A DNA stretch of 64,000 bases from Actinomycetes bacterium (lineage in GTDB: Bacteria > Actinomycetota > Actinomycetes > S36-B12 > UBA5976), in assembly GCA_037137575.1 (NCBI GenBank), contig JBAXKB010000004.1, positions 268 to 64,267 of the forward strand, written 5' to 3'. Each line of letters opens with the position of its first letter. The first letter of the stretch is position 1. Shown here piece after piece: positions 9,352 to 63,023 of the stretch. The position numbers were made by a program, and so were the translations under genes. A model generated the notes under the pieces. That model was not told the DNA's origin, did not search any database, and saw only the letters and a list, made by a program, of their open reading frames with translations.

Positions 9352-9387
9352 AAGTTAGACAACTTTAATTGCGCTAAGGAGGTGCTT

Positions 9388-10733: not shown

Positions 10734-10773
10734 TGCGCATCGCGAGGTCAGTTTCTACTGGCAAGATAGAACA

Positions 10774-26978: not shown

Positions 26979-27683
26979 ATGCCAGTGTCAGAGTCGCCTC
27001 GAGCGTCGACGCATTTGCGTTCAGGTATTCCTGAAGCCACTGTGACTCGACTCCCGATGTACCATCGCGCACTTGTTGCGATGGCAGCGCGCGGCACTGA
27101 ATTAGTTTCATCCGAAGAACTTGCAACAGCCAGTGGCGTATCTAGTGCAAAACTTCGCAAAGATTTATCTTTCTTAGGTTCCTATGGAACTCGCGGCGTT
27201 GGCTATGACGCAAACTTTCTGCTGTATCAAATTGCGCGTGCACTTGGTTTAACTCAAGAGTGGGCAGTTGTAATCGTTGGTGTTGGAAATCTGGGGCACG
27301 CACTTGCGGGCTACCCAGGTTTCGCATCACGCGGGTTCCACGTAGTTGGATTATTTGATACCGATCCGAACCGAATTGGTGAAACAGTTGTTGTCGGTGG
27401 CGTAGATGTGACAGTTGCAGACATCAAGACTCTGCCTTCAGTCATGCAAAAGACTGGCGCATCGATTGGCGTGATTGCAACGCCTGAGAGCGCAGCCCAA
27501 AGTGTTAGCGATCTACTTGTCCGCCATGGCGTGACAAGTATTTTAAATTTCGCACCTGTCCTGCTGGACGTTCCCCAAGGTGTAGACGTGCGACGAGTGG
27601 ATTTAGCAACTGAGTTGCAAATTCTCGCGTTTCACGAACAACGCAAGGCTGAAGTGGCCTTGGGAAGCAGCAATGCTGGCTAG
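26979..27683 (+). CDS. rex: Redox-sensing transcriptional repressor Rex
   Basis: 'IPEATVTRLPMYHRAL' winged helix and 'VVIVGVGNLGHALAGY' NADH-binding Rossmann motif. I chose the ATG at 26979, with GGAAG 10 nt upstream. The track start at 26898 is also possible. Confidence 0.9.
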   Translation: MPVSESPRASTHLRSGIPEATVTRLPMYHRALVAMAARGTELVSSEELATASGVSSAKLRKDLSFLGSYGTRGVGYDANFLLYQIARALGLTQEWAVVIVGVGNLGHALAGYPGFASRGFHVVGLFDTDPNRIGETVVVGGVDVTVADIKTLPSVMQKTGASIGVIATPESAAQSVSDLLVRHGVTSILNFAPVLLDVPQGVDVRRVDLATELQILAFHEQRKAEVALGSSNAG

Positions 27684-43955: not shown

Positions 43956-44324
43956 GTGGGACAAGGCGCGATTTACCTACCCATTCTGTTTTTAGGTCTG
44001 TTGGCTTTTGGCTTTGCTGCATTTTCGGTAGTGGCCGCCACATTTACTGGACCAAAACGATACAACCGAGCAAAAGTTGAAGCTTACGAATGTGGCATTC
44101 AACCAACTCCGCAACCTGAAGGTGGCGGCCGGTTCCCGGTGAAGTATTACTTAACTGCAATGTTGTTCATTATTTTTGATATTGAAATTGTTTTCCTTTA
44201 CCCATGGGCTGTCACGTGTGACAAACTTGGAGTTTTTGGGTTGGCCGAAATGGTGTTATTTATTGTCACAGTGTTAGCTGCGTACGCATTTGTTTGGCGT
44301 CGCGGCGGCCTCGAGTGGGATTAG
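43956..44324 (+). CDS. nuoA: NADH-quinone oxidoreductase subunit A
   Basis: 'YECGI' and 'FIIFDIEIVFLYPWA'. GTG start preceded by a GAGGG RBS. Confidence 0.95.
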   Translation: MGQGAIYLPILFLGLLAFGFAAFSVVAATFTGPKRYNRAKVEAYECGIQPTPQPEGGGRFPVKYYLTAMLFIIFDIEIVFLYPWAVTCDKLGVFGLAEMVLFIVTVLAAYAFVWRRGGLEWD

Positions 44325-44339
44325 TTAGGTGCACGAGTA

Positions 44340-44894
44340 ATGGGTATTGAAGAAAAATTACCAAGTGGAGTTCTACTCACAACTGTTGAAGGCTTAGCTG
44401 GATACGCACGTAAAAACTCGCTGTGGCCAGCAACCTTTGGACTAGCATGCTGCGCGATTGAAATGATGGCATCCGGTGCTGGCCGCTACGACTTAGCGCG
44501 GTTCGGTATGGAAGTTTTTCGAGCTTCACCACGCCAGGCTGACTTGATGATTGTGGCCGGTCGCGTAAGCCAAAAGATGGCGCCAATTGTTCGCCAGATC
44601 TACGATCAGATGGCAGCACCTAAATGGGTTTTGGCCATGGGGGCTTGCTCATCATCAGGCGGAATGTTCAATAACTACGCCATTATTCAGGGGGTAGATC
44701 ACATTGTGCCTGTTGACATCTACTTGCCAGGTTGCCCACCGAGACCAGAGATGCTGATCGATGCATTGCTGAAACTGCATGATCAAATTTCAGAGACAAA
44801 ACTTGGAACAAACCGCAAACGTCAGCTAGAAGATCTTGAGAATGCAGCGCTTATCGCAACCCCAACTATCGATCAGGTTGGGCTAATGCGATGA
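44340..44894 (+). CDS. nuoB: NADH-quinone oxidoreductase subunit B
   Basis: '[11 protein letters not shown]', 'MGACSSSGG' and 'LPGCPPRPE' (N2 cluster ligands). Confidence 0.97.
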
Positions 44895-45586
44895 ATGACG
44901 ATGTAGTAAAAGCGGGGTTGCCCCTACTTCAGGTAACCACTGTTCGCGAGGGCATGTTTGGCGCGAGTGGGTCGGGTGACACTTCAGGTTTCGGCGGTTT
45001 GGTTTCCGTAGTTCCAGTTCCAGTTGCATCTGCGCAACCGTTCGGAAATTACTTTGACGAAATTTATGCAGAGCTAGTTGCCGCGCTTCCACTTTTCAAG
45101 TCGTCAGCCGAAAAAGCATTCGACAAAATTGTTGTAGCGCATGACGAGATGACGATTTATGTTCACCCAACTGAACTTCTTGCCGTTGCTCGCACCTTGC
45201 GCGACGAACCAGGTCTTCGGTTCGAATTGTGCCTAGGCGTGAGCGGAGTTCACTACCCAAATCAAACTGGTGCTGAACTTCACGCGGTCTACCACTTCCG
45301 GTCGATCACACACAACCGCCGTGTTCGCTTAGAGGTTGTCGCTGCAGATTCACACCCGCACATTCCATCAATTGTTTCTATTTATCCAACGAACGATTGG
45401 CACGAGCGCGAAACCTTCGATTTCTTTGGCATCATCTTCGATGGCCATCCACACTTAACTCGCATTCAAATGCCAGACGATTGGCAAGGTCATCCGCAGC
45501 GTAAGGATTACCCACTTGGTGGAATTCCGGTTGAGTACAAAGGCGCAACAGTGCCAGCTCCAGATGAGCGGAGGTCATACAACTAA
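44891..45586 (+). CDS. nuoC: NADH-quinone oxidoreductase subunit C
   Basis: '[23 protein letters not shown]'. ATGA overlap with nuoB. Confidence 0.95.
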
Positions 45587-46905
45587 TGACTGATACATAC
45601 GCAGCGTCATACGACACAACTGAAGGTCGCGTCTTCACCGTTATGGGCCAAGACTGGGACACCATTACTGGTAACGCAGCTGGCGAAACCGAACGTATCG
45701 TGGTCAACATGGGTCCGCAACACCCATCAACTCACGGTGTGCTTCGCTTGATTCTGGAAATTGAAGGCGAAACCGTAACCGAAGCCCGATGTGGCATTGG
45801 TTATTTGCACACGGGCATTGAAAAGAACATGGAGTACCGACACTGGACTCAGGGCGTAACTTTTGTTACCCGCATGGACTACTTAAGCCCATTTTTTAAC
45901 GAAACTGCCTACTGCTTAGGCGTGGAAAAACTGCTCGGTATCACTGATCAAATTCCCGAACGCGCAAATGTAATTCGCGTGATGATGATGGAACTGAACC
46001 GAGTCTCGTCACACCTTGTTGCGTTGGCTACCGGCGGTATGGAACTAGGCGCATTAACGGCCATGATTTTTGGTTTCCGTGAACGCGAATCAGTTCTTGA
46101 CCTTTTTGAACTAGTAACTGGCCTTCGCATGAATAGTGCATACATTCGCCCCGGCGGTGTTGCCCAAGATTTGCCAGCTGGAGCTGAAGAAAAGATTCGC
46201 GAAACTATCAAGGCATTGCCGCGTCGTTTTAAAGACACCGCAGACATGTTGGTTGGCAACTCCATTTGGATGGGCCGCACTTCAGGTGTGGGCATTCTTG
46301 ACCTGGCTGGCTGTATGGCGCTTGGTGCAACAGGTCCGATTCTGCGTGCTACTGGATTGCCAGCAGACTTGCGTAAATCTGACCCATACTGCGGTTACGA
46401 AAATTACGAATTTGATGTCATCACTAAGGACACTTCAGATGCTTATGGCCGGTTCTTGATTCGTTTGGAAGAAATGGAACAGTCACTGAACATCGTTGAT
46501 CAGTGTCTTGATCGCTTAGCGCCGGGTCCAGTAATGGTGGAAGACAAAAAGATTGCTTGGCCGGCTCAGCTTTCAATCGGCAGCGATGGTCAAGGCAACT
46601 CTCTCGATCACATCCGCCACATCATGGGCGAAAGTATGGAAGCACTAATCCATCACTTCAAACTTGTAACTGAAGGATTCAACGTGCCAGCCGGTCAGGC
46701 TTATGTTGCCGTTGAATCACCACGTGGCGAACTTGGTGTGCATGTTGTTTCAGACGGTGGCACTCGTCCTTACCGCGTGCATTACCGCGATCCGTCATTT
46801 ACAAACTTGCAGGCAACTGCAGCGATGTGCGAAGGCTCGCAAATTGCTGACGTGATTGCGGCTGTTGCGTCAATCGACCCTGTCATGGGGGGAGTGGATC
46901 GCTAA
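45586..46905 (+). CDS. nuoD: NADH-quinone oxidoreductase subunit D
   Basis: '[15 protein letters not shown]', 'GYLHTGIEK' and '[11 protein letters not shown]'. Confidence 0.97.
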
Positions 46906-47553
46906 ATGTCACTAACCGAAGATACCCGAACTAAAGCGCGCGAAATCATTGCTCGCTATCCACATGCACGTTCAGCGCTGCTACCGATGCTGCACCTAGT
47001 GCAGGCGCAAGAAGGTTATGTAAGCGCCGATGGCATTGCACTTTGTGCTGAAGAACTGGCACTAACTACTGCTGAAGTTTCAGCAGTAGCGACTTTCTAC
47101 ACGATGTACCACAAGAAGCCAGTTGGCGAGTATCACATCGGTGTTTGCATCAACCCAGGTTGTGGCATTCTCGGTGGCGATGCGATTTGGTCAACTCTTT
47201 GCAGTCGCCTCGGTATTAGCAACGACGAAGTAACTGATGATGGCAAGATTTCGCTTGAGCGCATTGAATGCCAAGCAGCTTGCACTCATGCACCAGTAAT
47301 GACCGCTAACTGGGAATTCCTGGACAATATGACGCCAGAATCTGCTGTTGATGTTGTTGAAAAACTGCGTTCTGGCCAAGAAGTTCACAGCACGCGCGGA
47401 CCAAAGATTCCAACTTTCAAAGAAAACGAATTAGTTCTTGCCGGATTTGACGATGGCTTAGCTGGCGAGGGCGTACAGGCTGACGAGTACATGCTTGCTG
47501 GTTTGAATCGAGCTAAAGAATTAGGCCAAAGCGCGCCGGAGGTAAAGGCATGA
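46906..47553 (+). CDS. nuoE: NADH-quinone oxidoreductase subunit E
   Basis: 2Fe-2S ligands in 'GVCINPGC' and 'ECQAAC'. Confidence 0.95.
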   Translation: MSLTEDTRTKAREIIARYPHARSALLPMLHLVQAQEGYVSADGIALCAEELALTTAEVSAVATFYTMYHKKPVGEYHIGVCINPGCGILGGDAIWSTLCSRLGISNDEVTDDGKISLERIECQAACTHAPVMTANWEFLDNMTPESAVDVVEKLRSGQEVHSTRGPKIPTFKENELVLAGFDDGLAGEGVQADEYMLAGLNRAKELGQSAPEVKA

Positions 47554-48851
47554 CATTAACTCCAGTTCTATCCGCACATTGGGATGACGCAGATTCGTAC
47601 ACAATTTCGGGTTACATGCGCCACGGTGGATACACCGCATTTAAAAAAGCATTAACCACAGACCCTGATGAAATCATTTCGTTAGTTAAAGACTCAGGCT
47701 TACGGGGTCGCGGTGGCGCAGGTTTCCCAACTGGTTTGAAGTGGAGTTTTGTTCCACAAAACGATGGCAAGCCGCACTACTTAGTTATCAACGCCGACGA
47801 GTCTGAGCCAGGTGCTTGTAAAGATATTCCGTTGATGATGGCGAATCCACACTCGTTAATCGAAGGCATGATTATCGCGGCATTTGCAATGCGCGCAAAC
47901 CACGCTTTCATTTACATTCGTGGTGAAGTGCCACATGTTTTCCGCCGCGTAAACGCCGCAATTCGTGAGGCTTACACCGCTGGGTACCTTGGCAAGAACA
48001 TCATGGGCTCCGGATTTGATCTTGAAGTTGTGCTTCATGCTGGAGCGGGAGCATACATTTGTGGTGAAGAAACCGCGCTACTTGATTCACTTGAAGGCCG
48101 CCGTGGACAACCCCGTTTGAAGCCACCGTTTCCTGCAGTTGCCGGGCTTTATTCATCGCCATCATGCGTGAACAATGTTGAGACCATCGCAAACATTCCT
48201 TACATCTTTAACAACGGTGTCGATTGGTTCCGATCATTTGGCACCGAAAAATCACCAGGATTCAAGTTATTCGCAGTTTCGGGTCATGTGAATCGCCCTG
48301 GTATTTACGAGGCTCCGCTGGGTATCACTATGCGCGAACTTTTGGAACACGCAGGTGGCGTTCGTGCTGGACACAGTGTGAAGTTCTGGTTGCCAGGTGG
48401 CTCATCAGTACCGATGCTTACCCCTGAACATTTAGACACTCCACTGACTTACGAAGACATCGCTGCCGCAGGTTCAATGCTTGGCACTGGAACTCCGATG
48501 GTGTTCGACAACACAACATCAGTTGTGCGAGCAGTTACCGGCTGGCTTGCTTTCTACAAGCACGAATCATGTGGCAAGTGCACGCCATGTCGTGAAGGTA
48601 CTTACTGGATCAGCGATGTTTTGCATCGCCTTGAAGAAGGTCATGGAACCGAAGCAGACCTAGAAACTCTGGTTGAATTGTGTGCACAGATTGCTGGTCG
48701 ATCATTTTGCGCACTTGGTGACGCAGCAGCAACGCCGTTCCCCGCAGCGCTTAAGTATTTCCGCGATGAATTTGTGCAGGCAACTACAACGCCAGCTAAC
48801 GAGTCTTACGATCCAACCGCTGCCACCGTTTTCGCAGGAGCAAGCCGATGA
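47550..48851 (+). CDS. nuoF: NADH-quinone oxidoreductase subunit F
   Basis: '[16 protein letters not shown]' (FMN/NADH site), '[10 protein letters not shown]' and '[12 protein letters not shown]'. Confidence 0.97.
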
Positions 48852-51073
48852 CTGTTACAACTTCCACTGTCACTTGCACTGTTGACGGGGTAACTGTTGA
48901 AGTACCTGCTGGCACGCTAATCATTCGTGTGGCCGAAATGCTTGGCACCGCAATTCCACGTTTCTGTGATCACCCACTTCTAGACACAGTGGCAGCTTGT
49001 CGCATGTGCCTAGTTGAAATTGAAGGTCAGCCAAAGCCACAGCCATCTTGTGCGATTCCAGTAACCGAAGGCATGGTTGTCAAAACTCAGCACACCAGCG
49101 AAGTTGCCGCAGCTGCGCAGGCTGGCGTGATGGAGTTCTTGCTGATTAACCATCCACTTGATTGCCCGGTGTGTGACAAGGGTGGCGAATGTCCGCTACA
49201 GAATCAGGCAATGACAAGTGGTCGTAGCGAGACTCGATTCACTGGCGTAAAACGCACATTCCCGAAGCCAATCAATGTCAGCGCCCAGGTTCTTCTAGAC
49301 CGCGAACGTTGCGTTTCATGCGCGCGCTGTACTCGCTTTGCTGATCAAATTGCTGGCGATCCGTTCATTGAACTTCTAGAGCGTGGGGCAAAACAGCAGG
49401 TTGGCATCTCCGAAGATCAGCCGTTCGATTCTTACTTCTCTGGTAACACAATCCAGATTTGCCCGGTAGGCGCATTAACAAGTGCGAAGTACCGATTCCG
49501 TTCCCGTCCATTCGATTTAGTTAGCACTCCAACTGCTTGTGAACACTGCGCAAGTGGTTGTGCGCTTCGCACCGACGTGCGTCGCGGCACTGTTATGCGT
49601 CGCTTGGCGTGGGATGCTCCGGAAGTTAATGAAGAGTGGAACTGCGACAAGGGTCGCTTTGCCTTCCCTTACTTAACCCAAGCGCGAATCACGACTCCAC
49701 TTGTTCGCGACGAAGATGGAAATCTTGTTCCAGCATCTTGGCCAGAAGCAATTCGTGTTGCCGCAGCCGGCTTAGCTAAAACTGGCGCACAAACCGGTGT
49801 TCTTACTGGTGGCCGTTTAACTAATGAAGATGCTGGCGCATACGCAGCATTTGCGCGCGGAGTGCTTGGCACAAACGATGTAGATTTCCGCGCTCGCGCA
49901 GTGAGCGATGAAGAGACCGCGTTTTTGGCAAATCATGTTGCTGGACGCGGCTTGGATGTCACTTATGCCGATCTAGAAGCAGCGCCAGCGGTGTTATTGG
50001 TTGAGTTTGAACCGGAAGACGAGTCACCGATTGTTTTCTTGCGCCTTCGTAAAGCAGCGCGTACTCGGGGAACAAAGGTTTATTCGGTAGCACCGTATGC
50101 AACTACCGGCTTGGGCAAAGTTGGTGGCACGTTAATTGCAACTGCGCCACATGCAACTCCATCCGCCGTTGCTGGTTCAGCCAAATTAGTAGCCGAATCA
50201 GGCAGCGTTATTTTGGTCGGCGAACGCGCGGCCTCCACACCAGGACTACTTACTGCAGTTGCCGAGTTAGCAACAGCGACAGGTGCTCGCATCGGTTGGA
50301 TTCCTCGTCGCGCCGGCGATCGTGGCGCACTTGATGCTGGTCTGTTGCCAATTAATGGGCGCAATACTGAAGACATCATCGATGCAGTTGGCTCAGACAT
50401 TTCGGGCCTAGTAATCGCTGGCGTCGCAAGTGAAGATTTGATGGCGGACCTCGAAGGCGCAATTGAGCGCGCTGAGTTTGTTGTCTCACTTGAAACCCGG
50501 CACACCGATGTAACGGCAATTGCTGATGTAGTTTTCCCAGTGGCCACTGTGGTTGAAAAAGCTGGAACATTACGCAACTGGGAAGGTCGCGATCGCAGTT
50601 TCACCGCTGTGGCGCCTAAACAAGGTGTCATTAGTGACGCTGCGGTTCTTGGCGAAATCGCACAGGAACTGGGCGTTCAACTTTCGGTTACTGAAAACTT
50701 TTGGGCAACTGCTGATAAGCCGGCACTTTCTGGCGCAGCTGTGGGCGCACCAGTTCTTGAATCTGGCCAGGCTGAACTAAGTTCTTGGCGCCACTTGTTA
50801 GATAAGGGCACATTGCAAGATGGCGAGCCTTACTTAGCAGCCACTTCGCGTGTTGCTGTCATTCGGGTAAGTGCTGCCACTGCAAAGTCTCTTAGCTTGG
50901 TCGATGGGGAATTCGCAACTGTAGATTGCTCTGGAGTAACAGCAAGTGCGCGAGTCATCTTCACCCACGACATGGTTGATGGGGTTGTCTGGATGCCGGG
51001 AAATAGCGAAGGCACTTCACTAAATCTGCCGTCTGGCTTAGTCGTAACTGTTACCGCTGGAGGTCAATCGTGA
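48848..51073 (+). CDS. nuoG: NADH-quinone oxidoreductase subunit G
   Basis: 'PRFCDHP', 'CRMCLVE', '[17 protein letters not shown]' and '[10 protein letters not shown]'. Confidence 0.97.
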
Positions 51074-52404
51074 CATCGCTAGTTCGTGTGGGCCAAAGCG
51101 CAACTACCACTCAGTTTGGCACTGATCCGATTCTGATTATCTTGCTAAAGGTTGTCGGTATTTTCGCAATCATGGTGGTAATGACTCTTATGACGATTTG
51201 GGCTGAGCGTCGCGTGGTTGGTCGTATGCAGATGCGTATCGGTCCAAACCGAGTTGGTCCGTTTGGTTTACTGCAATCGCTGATGGATGGCATCAAACTT
51301 GCGCTCAAGGAAGAAATTATTCCCAAGACCGCTCACCTGGCCGTTTACTGCATCGCTCCAGTTATTTCAGCAACGACCGCGTTCTTAACATTCGCAGTTA
51401 TCCCACTTGGGCCAACAGTTTCCATGTTCGGACATCAAACACCGTTGCAGCTAACTGATTTCCCGGTTTCAGTTCTGTACGTGCTAGCGATTGCATCGAT
51501 AGGTATTTACGGAATCGTGCTTGCCGGTTGGGCATCTGGATCAACTTATCCACTACTTGGTGGTCTGCGTTCAAGTGCTCAGATGATTAGTTACGAAATT
51601 GCGATGGGCTTGTCCTTCGTGGCAGTGTTCCTCTACGCATCTTCGATGTCTACTTCGGTGATCGTAGAAAGTCAGCAGCATGTCTGGTACGGCGTTTTGC
51701 TATTGCCATCATTTGCGATTTATACGATTGCAATGGTTGGCGAAACTAACCGCGCACCATTTGACCTTCCAGAAGCTGAAGGTGAACTAGTTGGTGGTTT
51801 CCATACCGAGTACTCGTCACTCAAGTTCGCGCTATTCTTCCTAGCTGAGTACGTGAACATGGTGACGGTTTCAGCGATGGCAACCACATTGTTCCTTGGC
51901 GGCTGGCGCGCACCATGGCCAATTTCAGTTTGGTCTGGGGCAAACCAAGGCTGGTGGCCACTGCTTTGGTTCTTTGGAAAAATCTTCGCGTTCCTATTCG
52001 TTTTCATCTGGCTCCGCGGCACACTTCCACGCATGCGATACGACCAGTTCATGAAGTTCGGTTGGAAAGTTTTAATTCCAGTTTCAATTGTGTGGATTGT
52101 CATCGTGGCAACCGCTCGCGAATTACGCAATGCAAACATGCTAGATACGCGCATGCTGTTGTTCATTGCTAGCTCAGTGCTATTTGTTGGCGTAGTTATT
52201 TCGTACTACCTAGAAATTCGTGCCAAGAAGCGTGATTCGGTAATCGAGCACGAGCAGCGCCAACGCGAAGCCCGTGGTTTTGATCCATTTGAAGGTGGGT
52301 TCCCAGTTCCACCACTACCCGGGCAGAGCGCTCAACCATCTCGCTTGAGTTCAATAAAGGTCGCCCAAACACAAGATCCAGTAGCGCAAGTGGAAGGTCA
52401 GTAA
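51070..52404 (+). CDS. nuoH: NADH-quinone oxidoreductase subunit H
   Basis: '[25 protein letters not shown]' and '[25 protein letters not shown]'. GTGA overlap with nuoG. It has a long hydrophilic C-terminal tail. Confidence 0.96.
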
Positions 52405-52943
52405 TGCCACAGTTACCACAAGTGATTCGCGGATTTAGTGTCACGTTTTTCGCAATGTTCAAGAAAGTCACAACTGAGCAGTATCCAGAAGAGCGCGACA
52501 TCTACCCACCGAAGCCACGCTTTCATGGTCGTCACCAACTAAACCGTCATCCTGATGGTCTAGAAAAATGTATTGGCTGTGAACTTTGTGCTTGGGCTTG
52601 TCCTGCCGATGCCATTTTGGTTGAAGGCGCTGACAACACTGAAGAAGAGCGATTCTCGCCAGGCGAACGCTATGGCCGCATTTATCAAATCAACTATTTG
52701 CGTTGCATTTTGTGCGGGCTTTGCATCGAAGCTTGTCCGACGCGCGCGCTAACCATGACCAATGAATACGAGCTTGCCGATAATTCCCGCGAAAAACTCA
52801 TCTATGAAAAGGCTGACTTACTAGCGCCACTTTTGCCAGGTATGGAAGCTGCTCCGCATGAAATGGCAGTTGGCGCTACAGATACGGATTACTACCTTGG
52901 CAATGTGACTGGGGTAAATCAGCTAAAGGCGGTGACTGAGTAA
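52404..52943 (+). CDS. nuoI: NADH-quinone oxidoreductase subunit I
   Basis: Two CxxCxxCxxxCP motifs: '[12 protein letters not shown]' and '[12 protein letters not shown]'. Confidence 0.96.
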
Positions 52944-53668
52944 TGACTGGTGAAGTTGTAATTTTTTGGGTTACCGCAATTTTTTCGGTAGCCGGGGCAG
53001 TTGGCATGGTCATTTCACGCAAGGCAGTCCATAGCGCTCTATGGGTTGCCTTCACCATGATCAATCTTGCGGTGCTCTACTTCAGTCTCGGTGGCGCTTT
53101 TCTGGGCACAACCCAAATTGTTGTTTATACCGGTGCGGTAATGATGCTGTTCCTGTTCGTTTTGATGATTGTTGGTGTTGACTCATCAGATTCATTGATC
53201 GAAACCATCAAAGGGCAGCGGATTGTGGGCACTATTTTTGCATTTGCAATGGGCGCTCTTCTAACTTCAGCGATTACCACAACTGGCTTCTCAGCCGCTG
53301 CTGGTGTTGCTGGCGCCAATGAGGCAAGCGGTGGAAACATCGAGGGTTTGGCTCAACTAATTTTCGGCCGCTACTTACTTGCCTTTGAGGTAACTTCCGC
53401 ACTTTTGATTACTGCCGCACTTGGCGCAATGGTTTTGGCGCACAATGAACGCTGGACACCACGTAAAACTCAAGCGCAGTTGCAGCGCGAGCGCACACTT
53501 GCGGGTCATCCAACACCAATGCCAAGTCCCGGCGTGTTGGCGCTACATAACTCAGTTGATACCCCTGCTCTGTTGCCAGATGGTTCACCTTCGCAAGAGT
53601 CTTTGCCACGAATTTTCAAGTCGGTTCAACATCCTGATGATTCAACAAACAACGAGGTGACTTCATGA
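52943..53668 (+). CDS. nuoJ: NADH-quinone oxidoreductase subunit J
   Basis: Position in the operon, polytopic character, '[15 protein letters not shown]' and '[15 protein letters not shown]'. Confidence 0.92.
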
Positions 53669-53964
53669 ACCCGAACAACTATTTAGTTCTTGCCGGCATC
53701 TTGTTCACAATCGGCGCTTTTGGTGTGTTAGTTCGCCGCAACGCAATCATTGTTTTCATGAGTGTTGAAATGATGCTCAACGCTGCAAACCTGGCTTTTG
53801 TCGCGGCCTCACATATCACGGGAACTCTTGATGGCCAGGCGGCAGCTTTTTTCGTAATGGTTGTCGCTGCGGCTGAAGTCGTGGTTGGGCTTGCCATCAT
53901 TGTTGTGATTTTCCGTACCCGTCGCTCAGCTTCAATTGATGAAGCAAGTCTGTTGAAGTACTAG
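53665..53964 (+). CDS. nuoK: NADH-quinone oxidoreductase subunit K
   Basis: 99 aa with three TM helices: '[14 protein letters not shown]' and '[11 protein letters not shown]'. Confidence 0.95.
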
Positions 53965-53974
53965 GGGATTATTG

Positions 53975-55834
53975 ATGATTTCTGCACTCATTGGCTTGCC
54001 ATTATTTGGCGCGGCTTTACTGTTGCTCGGTGGCCGCCGGACAAATGCTTGGGGCCATTACTTCGCGGTCGCAATGTCGTCATCAGCATTTATCGTTGGT
54101 GTCACCCAGTTCATTGCGCTGCTTGGTAAGCCAGCAGAAGAGCGAAGCATTGATACAAAACTTTTTGATTGGATTTCAGTTGGCACGTTCCATGTGCCAT
54201 TTGGCTTACATTTGGATCAACTTTCAATGGTTTTCGTGCTACTTATTACTGGCGTTGGTTCGCTAATTCATGTTTACTCAATCGGTTACATGGCGCACGA
54301 TGAAAACCGCCGCCGATTCTTTGGTTACCTAAACCTTTTCGTAGCGGCGATGTTGCTGCTAGTTCTCGCCGATAATTACTTGCTGTTGTACGTAGGTTGG
54401 GAAGGCGTTGGTTTAGCCTCGTACCTACTTATCAGCTTCTACCAACACAAGCCATCTGCAGCAGTTGCTGGCAAGAAAGCATTCGTAGTCAATCGCGTTG
54501 GCGATGTTGGCTTGTCTGTTGCCATCATGTTGATGTTCGTTACTTTCAAAGATGTGACATTTAGCGGTGTTACTGCACATGCGCAGCATGCATCAGGGCA
54601 CAGCTTGACCCTCATCGGCTTGGCGCTGTTGCTAGCCGCTTGTGGAAAGAGTGCTCAGTTCCCATTGCAATCTTGGTTACTCGATGCGATGGAAGGCCCT
54701 ACTCCGGTATCGGCTCTGATTCACGCGGCAACCATGGTTACCGCCGGTGTTTATTTAATTGTTCGCGCACATGCGATCTTCGATCTTTCTGAAACTGCGC
54801 GCACTGCTGTCGTGGTTATCGGTGCAATCACACTATTGCTCGGTGCATTCATTGGTACTGCCAAAGACGACATTAAAAAAGGTCTGGCTGGTTCAACCAT
54901 GAGCCAGATCGGTTACATGATTTTGGCTGCTGGTCTAGGCCCAGTTGGTTATGTATTCGCTATCTTCCACTTGTTAACCCACGGCATGTTCAAAGCCGGA
55001 TTATTCCTTGGCGCTGGTTCAGTGATGCATGGTATGGAAGATGATGTAAACATGCGCAACTACGGCGCACTTCGTGGGGCCATGAAAATCACTTACATCT
55101 CATTTGGACTTGGTTTTCTAGCGATCATCGGTATTCCACCGTTCGCTGGTTTCTGGAGTAAGGATGAAATTATTCATGCTGCATTCTCACAGAACCTAGT
55201 TGTTGGCTTGGCTACTTTGTTAGGTGCGGGAGTTACCGCGTTCTACATGACCCGAATGATGGCCATGACATTCTTTGGTGAATCTCGTTGGAAGAAAGGT
55301 GTTCATCCACACGAGTCACCACTTGTTATGACTGCGCCAATGATTATTTTGGCCATTGGTTCAGTATTTGGCGGCTTGGCGCTTAAGTTCCTAGGCGACA
55401 TCGAGTTGTGGCTTGAGCCAGTTGTTGGAGTCGCAGCGCCAAAAGATCCGGCATCTAACGCTGTGTTAATTCCAGTCACACTTACCGTTGTGCTACTCGG
55501 CGCAGGATATGGCTGGCTTAAGTACGCCAAGACTCCAGTACCTGCACTGGCCCCAGAAAATGTTTCGTTACTAACCCGCGCAGCTCGCGCAGATGTATAT
55601 GGTGATGCATTGAACGAGGCGGTATTCATGCGCCCTGGTCAGTACCTGACTCGCGCGCTTGTTTGGTTTGATTCACGAGCGGTCGATGGCCTGGTCGGTG
55701 GCTTGAGCGCAACTGTCGGCGGCCTATCTGCTCGATTGCGCCGCACCCAAAATGGGCTTGTTCGTTCGTACGCGTTAACTATGGTTGGCGGCGCTGTCTT
55801 GATTGCTTTAGTTCTACTCTTAGTGAGGCTCTAA
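53975..55834 (+). CDS. nuoL: NADH-quinone oxidoreductase subunit L
   Basis: Antiporter-like '[15 protein letters not shown]', '[32 protein letters not shown]' and the long lateral helix region. The ATG at 53975 is 7 nt after AGGGG. A TTG at 53972 is one codon upstream. Confidence 0.95.
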
Positions 55835-55836
55835 CT

Positions 55837-57342
55837 ATGTTGTTAACCGGTTTGATGCTAACGCCGCTAGTTGGTGCGATTGCAGTTTTTGCGCTACCAG
55901 CCTCACGTACTTTGTTGGCAAAACAGATTGCCTTGTTTTTTGCAACTATCACCACAGCAGGCGCTGTTTATGTTGGCATTTCGCTCGATCCAAATGTTAA
56001 AGGGATGCAGTTCACCGAAAGTCATGCGTGGATTCCAACTTTCAGCATCAATTGGGCGCTTGGCGTAGACGGAATCGCAGCTGTTCTTATTGTGATGGCT
56101 ACGATTTTGGTGCCACTAGTAATCATCGCTAGTTGGAACGATGTTGAGCGTATTGGTCGCGGAACTGTAAAAGGTTACTTTGGCTTAATCCTGCTTCTTG
56201 AAACTTTTATGATCGGTGTTTTTGCTGCGACCGACTTGTTCTTGTTCTATGTGTTCTTTGAGGCCATGTTGATTCCGGTTTATTTCCTAATCGGTCGTTT
56301 TGGTGGGCCACAGCGCGCATATGCTGCGATGAAATTCTTGCTCTATTCACTTGTGGGTGGGCTGTTCATGTTGGCATCGCTCATCGGCTTGTTCATTGTT
56401 TCCATGCGAACCAGTGCCACGGGCGGAAGTTTTGATTTCCAAACTTTAGTTGATTTGAACATTGATCCAGCCACACAAAAAATGTTGTTCCTTGGCTTCT
56501 TCTTTGCATTCGCAGTTAAAGCTCCGATGGTGCCGTTCCATACTTGGTTGCCAGATGCTGCAGCGGAATCAACCCCAGGAACTGCAACCTTGCTTGTTGG
56601 GGTGCTAGACAAAGTTGGCACTTTTGGCATGCTGCACTTCTTGTTGCCGATTTTCCCTGATGCAAGCAAGTTCTACGCTCCAGTGATTATCACGCTTGCA
56701 GTGATCAGCATCTTCTACGGCGCATTGCTGGCCATTGGGCAGACCGACATGATGCGCCTCGTAGCTTTCTCTTCAATTTCCCACTTCGGCTTTATCGTGC
56801 TCGGTATTTTCGTATTCACATCACAAGGTCTATCTGGTTCAACTTTCTATATGGTGAATCACGGTTTCTCAACCGGCGCGTTGTTCTTGGTGGTGGGGTT
56901 CTTAGCAAGCCGCCGCGGCTCATCATTGATCGCTGACTTTGGTGGCGTGACTCGAGTAGCCCCAATTCTTTCCGGTGTTATTTTGCTCGCTGGCTTGTCC
57001 TCGCTTGCGCTTCCAGGTATGTCTAGTTTCGTCTCGGAGTTCCTAGTTCTGTTAGGAACATTTAGCGTGTATCAGTGGGTAGCAGTGGTTGCCACGACCG
57101 GCATTGTGTTGGCGGCGTTCTACATTCTTTGGATGTATCAGCGCGTAGTAACCGGCGAGCCATCCCAAGAAGTGCGCGACACGGTTACCGAAATTTCTAC
57201 TCGTGAATTGGTCGCTATTGCGCCAATCATTGCGTTAATCATTTTGCTTGGGGTGTTCCCTCAGACAGCCTTGCGAATAATCAATCCAGCGGTGCAACAA
57301 GTATCGAATGTCTTGGAATCGGGTAATGGGGGTCAAGGATAA
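55837..57342 (+). CDS. nuoM: NADH-quinone oxidoreductase subunit M
   Basis: 'FEAMLIPVYFLIG' and 'KAPMVPFHTWLPDAAAESTPGTA'. Confidence 0.95.
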   Translation: MLLTGLMLTPLVGAIAVFALPASRTLLAKQIALFFATITTAGAVYVGISLDPNVKGMQFTESHAWIPTFSINWALGVDGIAAVLIVMATILVPLVIIASWNDVERIGRGTVKGYFGLILLLETFMIGVFAATDLFLFYVFFEAMLIPVYFLIGRFGGPQRAYAAMKFLLYSLVGGLFMLASLIGLFIVSMRTSATGGSFDFQTLVDLNIDPATQKMLFLGFFFAFAVKAPMVPFHTWLPDAAAESTPGTATLLVGVLDKVGTFGMLHFLLPIFPDASKFYAPVIITLAVISIFYGALLAIGQTDMMRLVAFSSISHFGFIVLGIFVFTSQGLSGSTFYMVNHGFSTGALFLVVGFLASRRGSSLIADFGGVTRVAPILSGVILLAGLSSLALPGMSSFVSEFLVLLGTFSVYQWVAVVATTGIVLAAFYILWMYQRVVTGEPSQEVRDTVTEISTRELVAIAPIIALIILLGVFPQTALRIINPAVQQVSNVLESGNGGQG

Positions 57343-58910
57343 TGACACCGACTATAGAGTACGGCGCGCTTGCACCAATCAGCATCGTGATGTCCGCTGG
57401 AGTGATTTCCATTTTGCTTGAAGCGTTCTTACCTCGCACTACCCGCAGGCCGGTACAGCTGGTGCTGGTATTTTCAACTTTGGCACTTGCCTTGTTTTAT
57501 GCACTTCTTAATTCGTTAAGTGGCAAAGCAGGCTCCGCTATGGGTCAAGGCGGACAGTTGCGCGGACTGCGCCAACTGGTTTCCTCCGGTTCAGTAGCAA
57601 TTGATGGCCCTGGCCTATTTCTCCAGGTAACTATTTTGCTAGTCGCTGTAGTTGGCGCGCTGCTTATTGCTGAACGCGGCATTGATCCGCAGGGTGATGC
57701 ATTCGCTGCTCGCGCATCTGCCCTTCCTGGCAGTGAAGACGAGCGTCAATTTACCAACCAAGGTTGGTTGCAGACCGAAATCTGGCCACTGTTCTTATTC
57801 GCAGTCGGCGGCATGCTGTTGTTCCCGGTATCTAACGACCTGCTGACTATGTTTGTGGCACTTGAAGTTCTGTCGCTGCCGTTGTACTTACTAGCAAGTA
57901 TGGCGCGCCGACGTCGCTTGCTCAGCCAAGAAGCAGCCCTGAAGTATTTCGTTCTAGGCGCATTCTCCAGTGCATTCTTCCTATTTGGGGCAGCACTTAT
58001 CTATGCGGCAACTGGCACGCTGACTTTCGGAGAAATTTCTACCGCATTGGGCAATTCATCACACGATGCAATTGTGTTGGCTGGTGTCGGTCTGATTGCA
58101 GTTGGCTTGTTATTTAAAGTGGGCGCAGTGCCATTTCATCAGTGGACTCCAGATGTTTATCAGGGCGCACCAACCCCATTGGTTGCTTTCATGGCAGCCG
58201 CTACAAAAGTGGCAGCGTTTGGCGCACTTCTTCGCATCTTCTACGTAGCATTTGGCACTCTGCGTTGGGATTGGCGACCAATGATGTGGGCTGTGGCTAT
58301 CGTGACCATGTTGCTCGGCTCGTTATTGGCGGTAACGCAGACTGACATCAAGCGCATGCTTGCTTATTCGTCTGTGGCACATTCTGGTTTCATTCTTCTT
58401 GGCGTCATTGCCGCTTCGCAGGCAGGATTAGCTACTTCGCTGTTCTACTTATTTGCGTATTCATTTACCACACTTGGCTCATTCGCCATTGTGTCGTTGG
58501 TGCGCGATCCATCTGGCGAGGCAACACACCTATCTAGTTGGGCTGGCCTAGGCAAGAAGTCACCTTTGGTGGCTGGGATTTTTGCGTTGTTCCTGCTCTC
58601 ACTAGCTGGCATTCCGCTAACTAGTGGTTTCACCGCAAAGTTTGCCGTGTTTGGCGCAGCTATTGAAGGCGGAGCAACACCGCTTGTGATTACCGCTGTT
58701 ATCTCGAGCGCGATTGCTGCTTTCTTCTACGCGCGCGTCATAGTTTTGATGTTCTTCTCGGAAGGCAAAGCAGACGATGTCGCCGTTGTCGTGCCCAGTG
58801 CATTCACCAAGATTGCTATTGCTATTAGTGTCGCCGTCACCTTGCTATTGGGCATCCTGCCTGAACAAGTTCTCGAAGCGGTCACTAATGCCGGTTTGTT
58901 CGTACGATAG
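57342..58910 (+). CDS. nuoN: NADH-quinone oxidoreductase subunit N
   Basis: 'ALEVLSLPLYLL' and 'KVGAVPFHQWTPDVYQGAPTP'. TAATG overlap with nuoM. Confidence 0.95.
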   Translation: MTPTIEYGALAPISIVMSAGVISILLEAFLPRTTRRPVQLVLVFSTLALALFYALLNSLSGKAGSAMGQGGQLRGLRQLVSSGSVAIDGPGLFLQVTILLVAVVGALLIAERGIDPQGDAFAARASALPGSEDERQFTNQGWLQTEIWPLFLFAVGGMLLFPVSNDLLTMFVALEVLSLPLYLLASMARRRRLLSQEAALKYFVLGAFSSAFFLFGAALIYAATGTLTFGEISTALGNSSHDAIVLAGVGLIAVGLLFKVGAVPFHQWTPDVYQGAPTPLVAFMAAATKVAAFGALLRIFYVAFGTLRWDWRPMMWAVAIVTMLLGSLLAVTQTDIKRMLAYSSVAHSGFILLGVIAASQAGLATSLFYLFAYSFTTLGSFAIVSLVRDPSGEATHLSSWAGLGKKSPLVAGIFALFLLSLAGIPLTSGFTAKFAVFGAAIEGGATPLVITAVISSAIAAFFYARVIVLMFFSEGKADDVAVVVPSAFTKIAIAISVAVTLLLGILPEQVLEAVTNAGLFVR

Positions 58911-60043: not shown

Positions 60044-61093
60044 ATGCGTAAGTTAGCAAAAATGATGATTGCACTAGTTGCAGTTTGGTCATTGATGTTT
60101 GTGGGCACAAGTCCGGCCTCAGCGAATAATACCTCGAAGCCAACCAAGAGTTCATCAGTCAGTTCCACTCACAAAGCGGACAAGACTAAGAAGAAAGATA
60201 AAAAGACCAAAAAGACAAAGAAGGCTAAAAAAGCTGGCAAGAAAGCTAAGAAGGCTAAAAAAGTTGGCAAGAAAGGCAAACGCGTAGCAAATTTCGCGCC
60301 AGTTGCCGAACCGACTCCAACAGATGCGCCGCTGTGCGATCCCGATGTTGATGTCTGCGACCCAGTTGTTGATCCAGACCCGACACCATATTGCTCGGTA
60401 GTTAGGGTCGGAGATGTTGATGTCTGCGAACCAATTTGTGACCCAGCAGTTGATGTATGTGATCCACCGTGCGATCCGATGATCGACAAGCTCTGCCAAC
60501 CAATTGATCCAACTTGTGATCCTGCAGTAGATGTTTGGTGTGAAATTGTTGTTGATCCAACTTGCGACTCAACAGTTGATTCTTGTGACCCGGTTGTTGA
60601 CCCGATCGATCCGATTGTTGACCCATACCCAACTTGGGACTTCAACTCTGCAGCTTGGACCACCTACTATGACAGTCTTGCCAAAGCAAATACTGATTAC
60701 ACAGATTTTGTTGCAGCTGCCCAAGCCGAATTCAATGCATCAACATCAGATGCAAGAGCAGCGCTTGATGAAGCATATGCATCTGCAACAACTTTTGCTG
60801 AGATAGTCAAAGCAAAAACCGAATTCCGACTAGCTACTGAAGTTCAGCAAGCGAAACTTAATGCCGTACTCGCTGATGCAAACGAAGCATTTGCATATCT
60901 TTCCAACAAGGCTTACGACCAATTGGTCGCTGATGGTGGATTGACTGTGTTTAAGTGTGGCGATCGTGATGGCGACGATGTAGATGTAAAAACCCATGTT
61001 GATCCTATGCCGCCTGCGCCAGGCGAGACTGGCGCACCAGTTCCACCGAAGGATGGAAAGCGCCATAAGGACCATAAGAAGCGTGGACATTAA
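60044..61093 (+). CDS. Secreted low-complexity protein with a poly-Lys block, a Cys-Asp-Pro repeat block and an Ala-rich helical C-terminal domain
   Basis: Signal peptide 'MRKLAKMMIALVAVWSLMFVGTSPASA'. Poly-Lys block 'KADKTKKKDKKTKKTKKAKKAGKKAKKAKKVGKKGK'. Twelve Cys lie in the 'CDPxVDVCDP'-type repeats. AGGAGCAGG RBS upstream and a terminator downstream. Confidence 0.8.
   Translation: MRKLAKMMIALVAVWSLMFVGTSPASANNTSKPTKSSSVSSTHKADKTKKKDKKTKKTKKAKKAGKKAKKAKKVGKKGKRVANFAPVAEPTPTDAPLCDPDVDVCDPVVDPDPTPYCSVVRVGDVDVCEPICDPAVDVCDPPCDPMIDKLCQPIDPTCDPAVDVWCEIVVDPTCDSTVDSCDPVVDPIDPIVDPYPTWDFNSAAWTTYYDSLAKANTDYTDFVAAAQAEFNASTSDARAALDEAYASATTFAEIVKAKTEFRLATEVQQAKLNAVLADANEAFAYLSNKAYDQLVADGGLTVFKCGDRDGDDVDVKTHVDPMPPAPGETGAPVPPKDGKRHKDHKKRGH
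60218..60277 (+). repeat. Tandem 30-bp duplication inside the Lys-rich coding block
   Basis: The units 60218..60247 and 60248..60277 are identical at 27 of 30 positions. They encode KKAKKAGKKA and KKAKKVGKKG. Confidence 0.85.
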
Positions 61094-61110: not shown

Positions 61111-61145
61111 CTGTGGGCCTGGGTTTTTCCCGGCCCACAGTTTTT
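61111..61145 (+). terminator. Rho-independent terminator
   Basis: A perfect 9-bp stem, CTGTGGGCC / GGCCCACAG, with a 12-nt loop, followed by TTTTT. Confidence 0.8.
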
Positions 61146-61239
61146 CCGTGAACGTAGGTGCGGGCTGGCTGTGCAAATTTTCGCAGGGTAAACCTAAACA
61201 GGTGGAACTTCCCAGCTAGTTATCGCCTAAAGTCGTAGT

Positions 61240-61638
61240 GTGATGCAAACTCCCGCAACTAAGCCCCATATTTTGGAATTGGGTCTGGCTTGCTGTGCGC
61301 TCGAGGCTTCCTCAGTGGATTTACTAGAGGCTGCGGCATCACTTGTTGATGTGACTCAACTCGAAAAATTTAGCTCTCACATTCTGGTAATTGCCGGTAC
61401 GGTAACCCATGCGCTAGCGCCGACGGTAAAACACGCATACGAGCAGTTAGCCGAACCTAAAGTTGTTATTGCCTTTGGAGTTTGTGCCATTAGCGGCGGG
61501 CCTTACTGGGACTCATACAGCGTCTTAAATGGTGCTGGCCAACTATTGCCAGTCGATCTGATGGTTCCTGGCTGTCCGCCTGCGCCAGAAGATCTGGCTG
61601 CGGCTCTGGGTGAAGCACTGAGGTTGATTAAGCCATGA
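61240..61638 (+). CDS. NuoB-like [4Fe-4S] subunit paralog, N-terminally short
   Basis: 'LGLACCALEA', 'FGVCAISGG' and 'VPGCPPAPEDL' conserve all four Cys that ligate cluster N2. It is collinear with NuoB at 44340..44894 but lacks about 30 N-terminal residues. Confidence 0.8.
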   Translation: MMQTPATKPHILELGLACCALEASSVDLLEAAASLVDVTQLEKFSSHILVIAGTVTHALAPTVKHAYEQLAEPKVVIAFGVCAISGGPYWDSYSVLNGAGQLLPVDLMVPGCPPAPEDLAAALGEALRLIKP

Positions 61639-62123
61639 TTAATTACCCAGGTGCAACTCGCTTCGAAGCGCGCCACGATGCTAGCTGGCTGTGGATTACT
61701 GCGGACAGTTGGCTCGACTGCGCCAGCTGGTTAAAAGCGCGCAAGTTCGTTAGATGCGAGTGGCTCACTGCAGTTCACTTAGCCGAAGATCAATTTCAAG
61801 TGACTTTGTGTGTGAGCGATTCTTTGGCTAACGAAAAAGTGCTTGTCGTGACTCAAGTTGACCAAGAGATTGAATCACTTGAGCAGATTTACCCAGTTGT
61901 GCAATTTCACGAACGTGAAGTTCGCCAGATGCTGGGGCTTAATTTTAAAAATGCCACAGATGAAAGTCCGGCTTTCAGCGCAGATTTCGCTGGGCACCCA
62001 TTACGCCGCGACTTTGCCTTAACCGAACGCACGGAACACGAGTGGCCAGGGCAAGTAGACCCAGAGAAGCAAACTAAGCGCCGGCCAGCACTTGCCCCGG
62101 GTGTGCGTCAGGAGTGGTTGTAA
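61635..62123 (+). CDS. NuoC-like (30 kDa subunit family) paralog
   Basis: ATGA overlap with the upstream gene. 'IYPVVQFHEREVRQMLGLNF' and 'FAGHPLRRDFAL' parallel '[20 protein letters not shown]' and '[12 protein letters not shown]' of NuoC. Confidence 0.75.
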   Translation: MINYPGATRFEARHDASWLWITADSWLDCASWLKARKFVRCEWLTAVHLAEDQFQVTLCVSDSLANEKVLVVTQVDQEIESLEQIYPVVQFHEREVRQMLGLNFKNATDESPAFSADFAGHPLRRDFALTERTEHEWPGQVDPEKQTKRRPALAPGVRQEWL

Positions 62124-62524
62124 TGAGTGGGCCACATGAATCAATCGCTCTGCATCCGCAGAGCTGCACTTCGTGCATGTTGTGTGTGCGCGAATGCCCA
62201 GACTGGTGCATAACAGTGGAAGCTCACTCAGAGCCAGATGCTGATGCGCCGCAGTACAGTAATGCCCGGCGCCCAGCCATGAAGAATGTTTTAGATTCGT
62301 TTGAGATCGATTTCAGTCACTGCATGTGGTGCGGTATCTGTATCGATGTGTGCCCGTTTGATGCTTTGCATTGGTCGGCGCAACCACTAGCTGCTAGCAC
62401 GCAGCGCGACGGATTAATTTATCCAATCGAGCGACTTATCGAAAATTTACCCTTAGCTAAAAGACCAGATGGAAGCGCTGCACCACAAATTGACGAACCA
62501 CCAAGTGGTCGGCGCAAAAAGTAA
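62114..62524 (+). CDS. NuoI-like 2x[4Fe-4S] ferredoxin paralog
   Basis: 'CTSCMLCVRECP' and 'CMWCGICIDVCP'. It overlaps the upstream gene by 10 nt. Confidence 0.8.
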   Translation: MVVMSGPHESIALHPQSCTSCMLCVRECPDWCITVEAHSEPDADAPQYSNARRPAMKNVLDSFEIDFSHCMWCGICIDVCPFDALHWSAQPLAASTQRDGLIYPIERLIENLPLAKRPDGSAAPQIDEPPSGRRKK

Positions 62525-62531
62525 CTTCGGC

Positions 62532-63023
62532 TTAGCGGTAGTTGGTGAATTGAACTGCGAAATCTAAGTCGGCATCTTTTAAGAGTGCCTGTACTTCTTG
62601 CAAATCATCGCGACTCTTGCTAGTAACCCGAAGTTCTTCGCCCATAATCTGGGTCTTGATACTCTTTGGGCCTTCATCGCGAATTAGTTTGCCGATCTTC
62701 TTGGCTTGCTCCTGATTGATGCCAGCCAAAAAGTCGCCGTTGATTTTGTATTCCTTGCCCGAAAGGCGAGGGTCTGTTGATTTCAGAGATTTAAGACTTA
62801 CGCCCCGCTTAACTAACTTGTCGCGAAGTACTTCGAGCGCTGCTTTAACTTTTTCCTCAGTTGATGAAGTTATTTCAACACCAAGCTCGCCTTTCCACTC
62901 AATCGTGGTGTCAGTTCCTTTGAAGTCAAAGCGAGTAGCTAGTTCTTTTTGTGCCTGATTTAAGGCATTATCTGCCTCTTGGCGATCTACTTTGCTAACG
63001 ATATCGAAACTGGAATCAGCCAT
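62532..63023 (-). CDS. yajQ: YajQ family (UPF0234) nucleotide-binding protein
   Basis: '[33 protein letters not shown]' and the C-terminal '[12 protein letters not shown]' are typical of YajQ. Confidence 0.9.

Follow-up and report, generated by a model that had tools for sequence, protein, structure and literature searches.

The window analysed here, a stretch of 64 kb (64,000 nucleotides (nt)) from the actinomycete contig JBAXKB010000004.1, carries a unit of three genes (61240-62524) which encode relatives of the complex I subunits NuoB, NuoC and NuoI and which we call B', C' and I', or together the trio. We are highly confident that the trio is the B2-C2-I2 remainder of an actinobacterial nuo2 operon, and very probably its genes still encode a functional Fe-S protein. 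As to its role, we lean on balance towards a soluble electron-transfer module with three predicted clusters. The initial annotation had named such a module, docking on another enzyme, as one of three readings, next to alternative subunits that swap into the canonical complex I and to a decaying relic of a second nuo or hydrogenase-like operon. Judged from sequence, the first of these fits best.

The three open reading frames (ORFs) are tightly coupled on the forward strand, as had been described. B' (61240-61638, 132 amino acids (aa)) encodes a NuoB2-type [4Fe-4S] subunit, C' (61635-62123, 162 aa) a NuoC2-type subunit whose start overlaps the B' stop as ATGA at 61635, and I' (62123-62524, 133 aa) a NuoI2-type subunit with two [4Fe-4S] motifs. 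The annotated 10-nt overlap of C' and I' (62114-62123) needs revision: the frame from GTG 62114 is open and would give 136 aa, but orthologs open with M(S/T)GPHESIALHP and close relatives have 133 aa, which makes ATG 62123 (TAATG, one-base overlap) the more likely start. The proposed membership in the NuoB, NuoC and NuoI families was confirmed, since B' matches Oxidored_q6 (PF01058) with 76 bits (cut-off 27), C' matches Complex1_30kDa (PF00329) with 72 bits (cut-off 22.5) and I' matches the Pfam 4Fe-4S dicluster families. They are divergent paralogs, however, and all NCBIfam scores stay below the cut-offs: 109.9 versus 116 (PRK06411) and 107.6 versus 142.7 (TIGR01957) for B' against the NuoB models, 58.5 versus 122.45 for C' against NuoC, and 57.1 versus 113.05 and 61.1 versus 163 for I', whose best models are those of NuoI. 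Identity to the canonical subunits encoded in the same window amounts to 39% for NuoB, 24% for NuoC and 30% for NuoI.

Structural comparison points in the same direction. The AlphaFold2 (AF2) model of C' has a mean confidence (pLDDT) of 87 and finds NuoC/NDUFS3 as top Foldseek matches (TM ~0.7); that of I' (pLDDT 88.5) finds NuoI/TYKY/NdhI chains, with the mycobacterial NuoI chain 8e9i_I at the top. The best PDB matches of B' are NuoB chains of complex I (77-87 bits), compared with 53-59 bits for HycG, MbhJ and MbsJ; with these values, and with only marginal matches to the hydrogenase models of NCBIfam, an origin from group-4 hydrogenases was rejected. Similarly, I' is not a ferredoxin of the PorD/KorD type, that is, a delta-type subunit of 2-oxoacid:ferredoxin oxidoreductases (OFORs): it scores 42.4 bits against PorD_KorD, below the cut-off of 60, and goes with NuoI and I2 in fold and tree. 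The Fe-S ligands had been called intact, and they are. B' contains the motifs LACCALE, GVCAISGG and PGCPP, with the ligands C18, C19, C82 and C112, all four invariant in 43 of 43 loci; they align with C45, C46, C111 and C140 of Nqo6. I' contains two complete CxxCxxCxxxCP motifs, and its nine cysteines, the eight ligands and an additional one in CPDWC, are invariant in 39 of 39 loci. This additional residue, C29 of the 133-aa protein, lies just past the first cluster motif and is present in all I' and I2 sequences, at a place where canonical NuoI reads CPADA.

The descent from nuo2 is carried by trees, by shared derived characters and by the chromosomal position. The relatives of I' reach well past the order Nanopelagicales (465 matches). 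The orthologs of C' have 148-164 aa and go down to 45% identity, and in an exhaustive profile search C' grades into a larger family (307 representatives at E <= 1e-10), including the 'NuoC' of Streptomyces. The corresponding loci were compared for three orders. Those of Streptomyces and Streptosporangium show a divergent korB-korA pair upstream of nuoA2-B2-C2-H2-I2-J2-K2-L2-M2-N2, in Streptomyces followed by a gene for an M48 peptidase; in Catenulispora, where the nuo2 genes are the same, M48 lies downstream as well, though on the opposite strand, and the locus contains no korAB. Neither NuoD nor NuoEFG was found in the nuo2 loci of these three genera. The function of Streptomyces nuo2 (SCO4599-4608) has been described as unclear (PMC9239103).

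In neighbour-joining trees, calculated on short alignments, B' with B2 was separated from canonical NuoB and I' with I2 from canonical NuoI in 200 of 200 bootstraps, and a concatenated tree of B, C and I (367 columns) divides nuo2-type from canonical proteins with 100% support. B' and B2 have the derived characters GTVT and GGPYWDSY in common, I' and I2 the CPDWC motif, a three-residue insertion in NVLDxF and CPFDALFWS. The nuo2 slot of the relatives lies after nuoA-N and a polyprenyl synthase gene, flanked by a divergent korBA on its upstream side and by M48, yajQ or both on its downstream side. The window presents the same slot, with nuoN, the polyprenyl synthase gene, further sequence, the trio and yajQ, and without korBA. 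Taken together, tree, signatures and slot show that the trio derives from nuo2; with regard to origin, the idea of a leftover from a second nuo operon was therefore correct.

A wider collection of loci allowed us to order this derivation into steps. The scan of GTDB species genomes detected C' in 34 loci (L007-L040), all from freshwater Nanopelagicales or metagenome-assembled genomes (MAGs) of Actinomycetota, in the order nuoA-N, polyprenyl synthase, one or two variable genes, B'-C'-I' and convergent yajQ; weaker matches in other phyla were ordinary NuoC inside full nuo operons. The survey of other Actinobacteria which the initial annotation had proposed thus found the trio, in 53 loci in all. 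One of the 34, L029 (CAMBGF010000031.1), is titled 'MAG: Bifidobacterium breve' and has a typical nuo-trio locus of the Nanopelagicales type; the record is almost certainly assigned to the wrong organism. Scanning metagenomes with the I'/I2 family added 80 further loci, and the I' of locus L065 is 100% identical to that of the window. Three architectures were observed. D-plus nuo2 consists of A2-B2-C2-D2-H2-I2-J2-K2-L2-M2-N2 with a full-length NuoD, often stands straight after canonical nuoN and has korA divergent upstream in none of seven loci. D-less nuo2 has the same gene content minus D2, with korA divergent upstream in five of the six loci that could be classified strictly, some D-less loci staying in a class whose D status is not visible. 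The trio has B-C-I only, with korA divergent upstream in 15 of 33 assessable loci. Six D-plus operons branch off at the base of the concatenated tree, and another one, L142, groups with the D-less operons. Second nuo operons of 11 genes without E, F and G were seen in L080, L112, L122, L123, L132, L133, L137 and L142 (for example L137, 6080-10366); several of them follow canonical nuoN directly, in freshwater and marine metagenome contigs, and L137 shares its source metagenome with L065, the twin contig of the window.

A likely sequence of events would start from nuo2 as an 11-subunit operon without NuoEFG. In Actinomycetes NuoD would then have been lost, with C2 gaining a conserved C-terminal extension at the same stage, and on the branch towards Nanopelagicales, Motilibacter and their relatives the seven membrane-subunit genes would have been deleted, leaving B-C-I in the slot.

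The second step is reflected in the C-terminus of C'. Its tail (62040-62120, +, residues ~136-162, EWPGQVDPEKQTKRRPALAPGVRQEWL) carries the family signature WPGxxEP...RRxxxPPGVxxxW, which is common to C' and to the 'NuoC' of Streptomyces, Streptosporangium and Catenulispora; W137, P138, G139, P155, G156 and W161 are invariant in 81 family members. The RRxxxPPGVxxxW extension is missing from C2 in ten of ten operons in which nuoD follows, where the protein ends in ...PWPGIVDVExMPG and an acidic stretch or, in L142, in ...PWPGAKEPGE; nearly all D-less nuo2 and trio forms have it. The ORFs of C2 and H2 adjoin or overlap in the majority of D-less operons, L070 being an exception (gap of ~1.3 kb). 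No counterpart of the extension exists in the solved NuoC chains. It is not a leftover of NuoD either, as a blastp-short comparison with eight NuoD/NuoD2 sequences yielded nothing beyond scattered chance matches of 4-10 residues. From its distribution we infer that the extension may take over contacts vacated by NuoD. The tail of the AF2 model has a confidence of 52-68, which is expected for a segment that folds only on a partner. The long C2 and I2 proteins of Streptomyces and Catenulispora show a different kind of extension, C-terminal, of low complexity and rich in Pro, Ala, Gly and Arg (L062 10001-10960; L064 11598-13310; P0229, P0231), which brings C2 to 504 aa and I2 to 570 aa and has no equivalent in the trio versions. 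C-like proteins of 400-500 aa were considered as fusions and rejected, the Streptomyces C2 having disordered tails and no additional domain.

The third step, the deletion of the membrane arm, left its mark on B' and I'. Residues 14-124 of B' map to residues 41-152 of Thermus Nqo6. The initial annotation had counted about 30 missing N-terminal residues; by alignment with canonical NuoB, B' is rather shortened by ~19 residues at the N-terminus and ~32 at the C-terminus, and in addition the loop after the tandem cysteines is replaced, with the motif R.D..R.G...PRQAD (equivalent to Nqo6 55-75) gone. Canonical NuoB and nuo2 B2 possess this motif of the quinone-cavity loop as well as the two terminal segments, all of which are absent from B'. 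In Nqo6, the quinone cavity is lined by the loops 55-70 and R66-V75, which also touch the loop between TM5 and TM6 of NuoH (PMC7434922), and in the NuoB homolog NDUFS7 amphipathic N- and C-terminal helices engage membrane lipids at the entrance of the quinone tunnel (PMC8762328). B2 retains the WGRRYSLW segment, the whole block after it and the C-terminal helix with or without NuoD in the operon. The trios lose these three elements in a graded fashion with their divergence from nuo2: the trios L117 and L102, nearest to nuo2, hold remnants, the window's B' has none, and the cluster-binding core is intact in all. I' in turn lacks the N-terminal segment of canonical NuoI (...TxQYPE...PRFHG) and opens just before the first cluster motif, whereas nuo2 I2 retains a canonical-like ...TxQYP...PRSRG segment. 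No hydrophobic segment was found in B', C' or I'.

These losses bear directly on the idea of an alternative Q-module, in which B', C' and I' would take the places of NuoB, NuoC and NuoI in the canonical complex, next to its NuoD and membrane arm, for example for electron input from ferredoxin instead of NADH. The trio indeed lies 2.3 kb downstream of the canonical nuo operon (43956-58910, +), as had been noted, the B' ligands are complete down to the tandem CC that characterises cluster N2, and borrowing of the canonical NuoD by nuo2 and trio, both without their own, is conceivable; a 'hybrid machinery' of this kind has been proposed for nuo and nuo2 of Streptomyces (PMC9239103). However, the loss of the membrane- and quinone-facing segments argues against a seating of the trio on the canonical membrane arm. 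D-less B2 and I2, encoded beside membrane subunits, have kept the same segments, the graded loss after the deletion of the membrane arm is the pattern expected from release from the NuoH/NuoA interface, and the nearness to nuoA-N is ancestral synteny of all three architectures. We therefore consider a swap into complex I quite improbable.

Decay can be judged from the selection acting on the genes, for which the initial annotation had proposed a dN/dS calculation. The median pairwise ratio of non-synonymous to synonymous substitutions (dN/dS) came out lowest for I' (0.024), followed by B' (0.048) and C' (0.142), that is, purifying selection on all three, and comparison genes from the same genome pairs (yajQ, nuoN, nuoI, nuoM and polyprenyl synthase) gave 0.018-0.045. 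A non-functional relic with pseudogenes in the making would be in line with the derivation from a larger operon by gene loss and with C' evolving faster than its neighbours. But all cluster ligands are invariant (four cysteines in B' and nine cysteines in I'), intact and tightly coupled ORFs were seen across the 53 trio loci, in which C' identity ranges from 41 to 99%, and even the leader sequence in front of B' is conserved. Decay is hardly credible on this evidence, and we regard this reading as effectively refuted. One apparent gene loss, that of I' in L004, proved to be an omission in gene calling: at 10438-10842 the public gene call (GCA_026392515.1) leaves out the third trio gene, an intact ORF, on account of its GTG start and its overlap with the gene before it. 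Counts of the trio drawn from called proteins will consequently come out too low.

The trio might also belong to a split second complex, with NuoD2 and A2, H2 and J2-N2 encoded elsewhere in the genome. It was correct that no NuoD, membrane anchor or antiporter-like subunit accompanies the trio, and the unit (61240-62524) contains no NADH module. Neither a second NuoD nor a second membrane-subunit set occurs in the 64-kb window; the only NuoD (45586-46905), NuoH and antiporter-like genes in it are those of the canonical operon. Our view of this genome comprises the 64-kb window and reaches no further than 20 kb around any related locus, and a nuoD2 at a separate locus has been reported in Streptomyces (PMC8388888). 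On the other hand, every nuo2 locus examined has its membrane genes in one contiguous run with B2, C2 and I2; the trio loci continue from I' straight into yajQ or M48, which resembles a clean deletion; and the segments of B' and I' facing the membrane arm are lost. The genomes of Nanopelagicales are small, which also counts against a dispersed complex. We think such an arrangement very unlikely.

A possible partner is suggested by the gene neighbourhood. In Motilibacter rhizosphaerae and two MAG contigs, the trio divergently adjoins a two-subunit OFOR, KorAB, with POR and POR_N domains in the alpha subunit and TPP_enzyme_C in the beta subunit, and is followed by genes for an M48 peptidase and YajQ. 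In eight loci of the Nanopelagicales type korBA was kept in the slot. OFORs of the two-subunit class have no internal ferredoxin domain (PMC5020499). As a conserved divergent neighbour that has no ferredoxin domain of its own and requires a low-potential acceptor, KorAB is the best candidate for a partner of the trio; we propose it tentatively, at rather less than an even chance. Within the window no OFOR or korAB genes were found, and two ORFs at 6989-10398 (605 and 338 aa) suspected to be korAB turned out to encode DnaK and DnaJ.

A non-catalytic Fe-S role could also be considered, with the trio acting as redox or iron sensor, Fe-S carrier or assembly factor for complex I or another enzyme. 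The strong conservation in spite of the lack of a conserved enzymatic neighbour in most Nanopelagicales loci would suit this role, as would the ninth invariant cysteine of I', which is not a canonical cluster ligand, and the conserved basic termini, KRRP on C' and the lineage-specific PPSGRRKK on I', possibly binding a partner or nucleic acid. The convergent pairing with the nucleotide-binding YajQ, 7 nt apart and directly after I' in 44 of the 53 trio loci, could be added. Against it, all three proteins keep the folds and the ligand geometry of electron-transfer chains, neither Pfam nor NCBIfam revealed a DNA-binding or sensor domain, and adjacency to yajQ is also seen in the full nuo2 region and in variants containing M48, which resembles plain synteny. 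A role of this type appears unlikely to us.

We return to the soluble module as the preferred reading. According to it, B', C' and I' are still made and needed and would form a soluble heterotrimer with three [4Fe-4S] clusters in line, two on I' and one on B'; here I' may work in a ferredoxin-like manner. C' with its tail would serve as a structural clamp, replacing contacts formerly provided by NuoD. The module would take up low-potential electrons and pass them on, like a large dedicated ferredoxin, and its ancestral and still frequent partner would probably be the neighbouring KorAB, no longer adjacent in the lineage of the window. That the heterotrimer assembles and is soluble in vivo, in which direction it conducts electrons and with which partner are all predictions. 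Going further, the trio might be an autonomous 'ferredoxin' derived from complex I, in which the C2 extension evolved as a substitute for the structural contacts of NuoD and which forms a wire linking soluble enzymes, for instance KorAB to an acceptor, and for that reason outlasted the loss of the proton-pumping arm; this extended version is possible but doubtful.

Several points weigh against the module as outlined. Complex formation, cluster content, expression and partner are predicted from sequence, and the search of this genome for NuoD, membrane subunits and korAB covered the 64-kb window only. korAB is missing from this window and from the slot in 18 of 33 assessable loci, and selection on the trio is just as strong there (dN/dS of I' 0.024 without adjacent korAB and 0.028 with it); adjacency to KorAB is hence not obligatory, and the present organism may use a different partner. 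Either korAB was moved elsewhere in such genomes or the trio serves another partner. The adjacency could also be simply inherited synteny, the loci coming from related Actinomycetes and not being independent. The block after the tandem cysteines of B' is ~60% conserved within Nanopelagicales, that is, replaced and not unconstrained, and may be in contact with something. Finally, the monophyly of the trios has 72% support in the concatenated tree on long branches and may be inflated.

The trio is a self-contained transcription unit by its boundaries. Upstream, the intrinsic terminator that had been reported (61111-61145, +) was recovered by the terminator scan, with the stem at 61120-61137, and by eye, where it reads CTGTGGGCC-T-GGG / CCC-GGCCCACAG, 12 bp with one bulge, followed by T5. 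It belongs to the gene at 60044-61093 and isolates the trio from transcription coming from there. A 21-nt leader (61222-61242, +, ATCGCCTAAAGTCGTAGTGTG) runs up to and includes the GTG of B'; it is unchanged between the window, L065, L007 and L001, whose intergenic DNA has otherwise diverged; the motif occurs once in the window, with 0 occurrences expected by chance, and is confined to loci of this sub-lineage. It contains a -10-like TAAAGT (61228-61233) six nt ahead of the GTG start, which fits an actinobacterial -10 element for a leaderless mRNA, and the leader is thus probably the trio's own promoter. The promoter scan found no sigma-70 consensus upstream of B', so that such a promoter was rejected in favour of the TAnnnT-type element. 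A known RNA element in the leader was likewise rejected: Rfam gave no family there and a tRNA-Tyr as its sole match. Downstream, the annotated convergent yajQ (DUF520, 62532-63023, -) was verified with 192 bits to PF04461 and forms the boundary, itself outside the module. Its stop lies 7 nt from that of I', with no terminator in between (62524-62532); from this arrangement, the two transcripts would have to overlap or end inside one another.

Some further observations concern the surroundings. The gene at 60044-61093 (+) encodes a protein of 349 aa which combines a signal peptide with a lysine-rich stretch and numerous Cys-Asp-Pro repeats (CDPxVDVCDP...). It matches no Pfam family, occupies the place where relatives carry korAB or EamA, and has homologs (46-66% identity) confined to the closest loci L001, L007 and L065. 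A Rex-type redox-sensing repressor (Put_DNA-bind_N and CoA_binding, 26898-27683, +) is encoded upstream of the block of heme, cytochrome c biogenesis, men and nuo genes. The window also contains a heliorhodopsin gene (12153-12917, +, PF18761 with 339 bits); in combination with the men and nuo genes and those for cytochrome c biogenesis, it is consistent with a freshwater actinobacterium.

The findings are of relevance beyond this locus. An actinobacterial lineage of complex-I-type gene sets has dispensed with NuoD, and a sub-lineage with the whole membrane arm, with B, C and I still under selection that equals that on core respiratory genes. The reduction series from 11 to 10 to three genes shows what portion of the connecting module is able to stand by itself, and the C2 tail is a concrete candidate for what compensates the loss of NuoD. 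To our knowledge, NuoD and NuoB build the catalytic pocket in every characterised complex I and hydrogenase relative; if the extended version above is true, the D-less 10-subunit nuo2 of Streptomyces would be a complex-I-type enzyme working without a subunit thought to be indispensable for quinone reduction. This provides a testable hypothesis for Streptomyces nuo2 and for the electron acceptor of the actinobacterial KorAB, and experiments are feasible in Motilibacter rhizosphaerae, which is cultured and has korAB beside the trio. Since the trio occurs in very abundant freshwater bacteria, it also matters for metabolic models of these organisms, in which its genes are now annotated as duplicate NuoB, NuoC and NuoI.

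In the literature, the statement that NuoB always pairs with NuoD and that a set without it had not been described goes too far. The D-less nuo2 cluster of Streptomyces is on record, though no function was assigned to it and C2 was not recognised (PMC8388888, PMC9239103), and a second, non-canonical NDH ('nNDH') lacking nuoDEF was reported for Marinimicrobia (PMC6143742). A synteny survey of 2026 groups nuoA, nuoB and nuoC with korA and korB in one conserved region (PMC13118837). Within the searchable literature we found no description of the three-gene form, of the series from D-plus to D-less to trio, of the correlation between C2 tail and NuoD loss or of the graded loss of membrane segments.

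Among known systems, Streptomyces nuo2 (SCO4599-4608) is the closest. The trio is orthologous to its B2, C2 and I2 and has signatures and C2 tail in common with it; NuoD and NuoEFG are likewise missing, and korAB upstream and M48 downstream recur in trio relatives. It differs by its seven membrane subunits, all missing from the trio, and by longer proteins (165-289, 180-504 and 176-570 aa for nuo2 B2, C2 and I2, compared with 132, 162 and 133 aa). The canonical NuoB, NuoC and NuoI (Nqo6, 5 and 9; PSST, 30 kDa and TYKY) agree with the trio in Pfam families, folds and cluster ligands, and complex I chains are the nearest solved relatives; in contrast to them, the trio stands without NuoD and NuoH, shows 24-39% identity and has the additional C' extension. 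Group-4 [NiFe] hydrogenases, Mbh, Mbx and formate hydrogenlyase (FHL) contain homologous B-, C- and I-type subunits next to a large subunit which the trio lacks. The Marinimicrobia 'nNDH', likened here by its description, is a second nuo set without NuoD as nuo2 is, but comes from another phylum and retains membrane subunits. The 11-subunit enzymes without NuoEFG, cyanobacterial NDH-1 and archaeal Fpo, equal D-plus nuo2 (L080, L112, L122, L132, L133, L137, L142) in gene content; they are membrane-bound, quinone-reducing proton pumps with NuoD, whereas the trio has neither NuoD nor membrane arm. These enzymes accept electrons from ferredoxin-type donors at the NuoI side, which fits the linkage to korAB.

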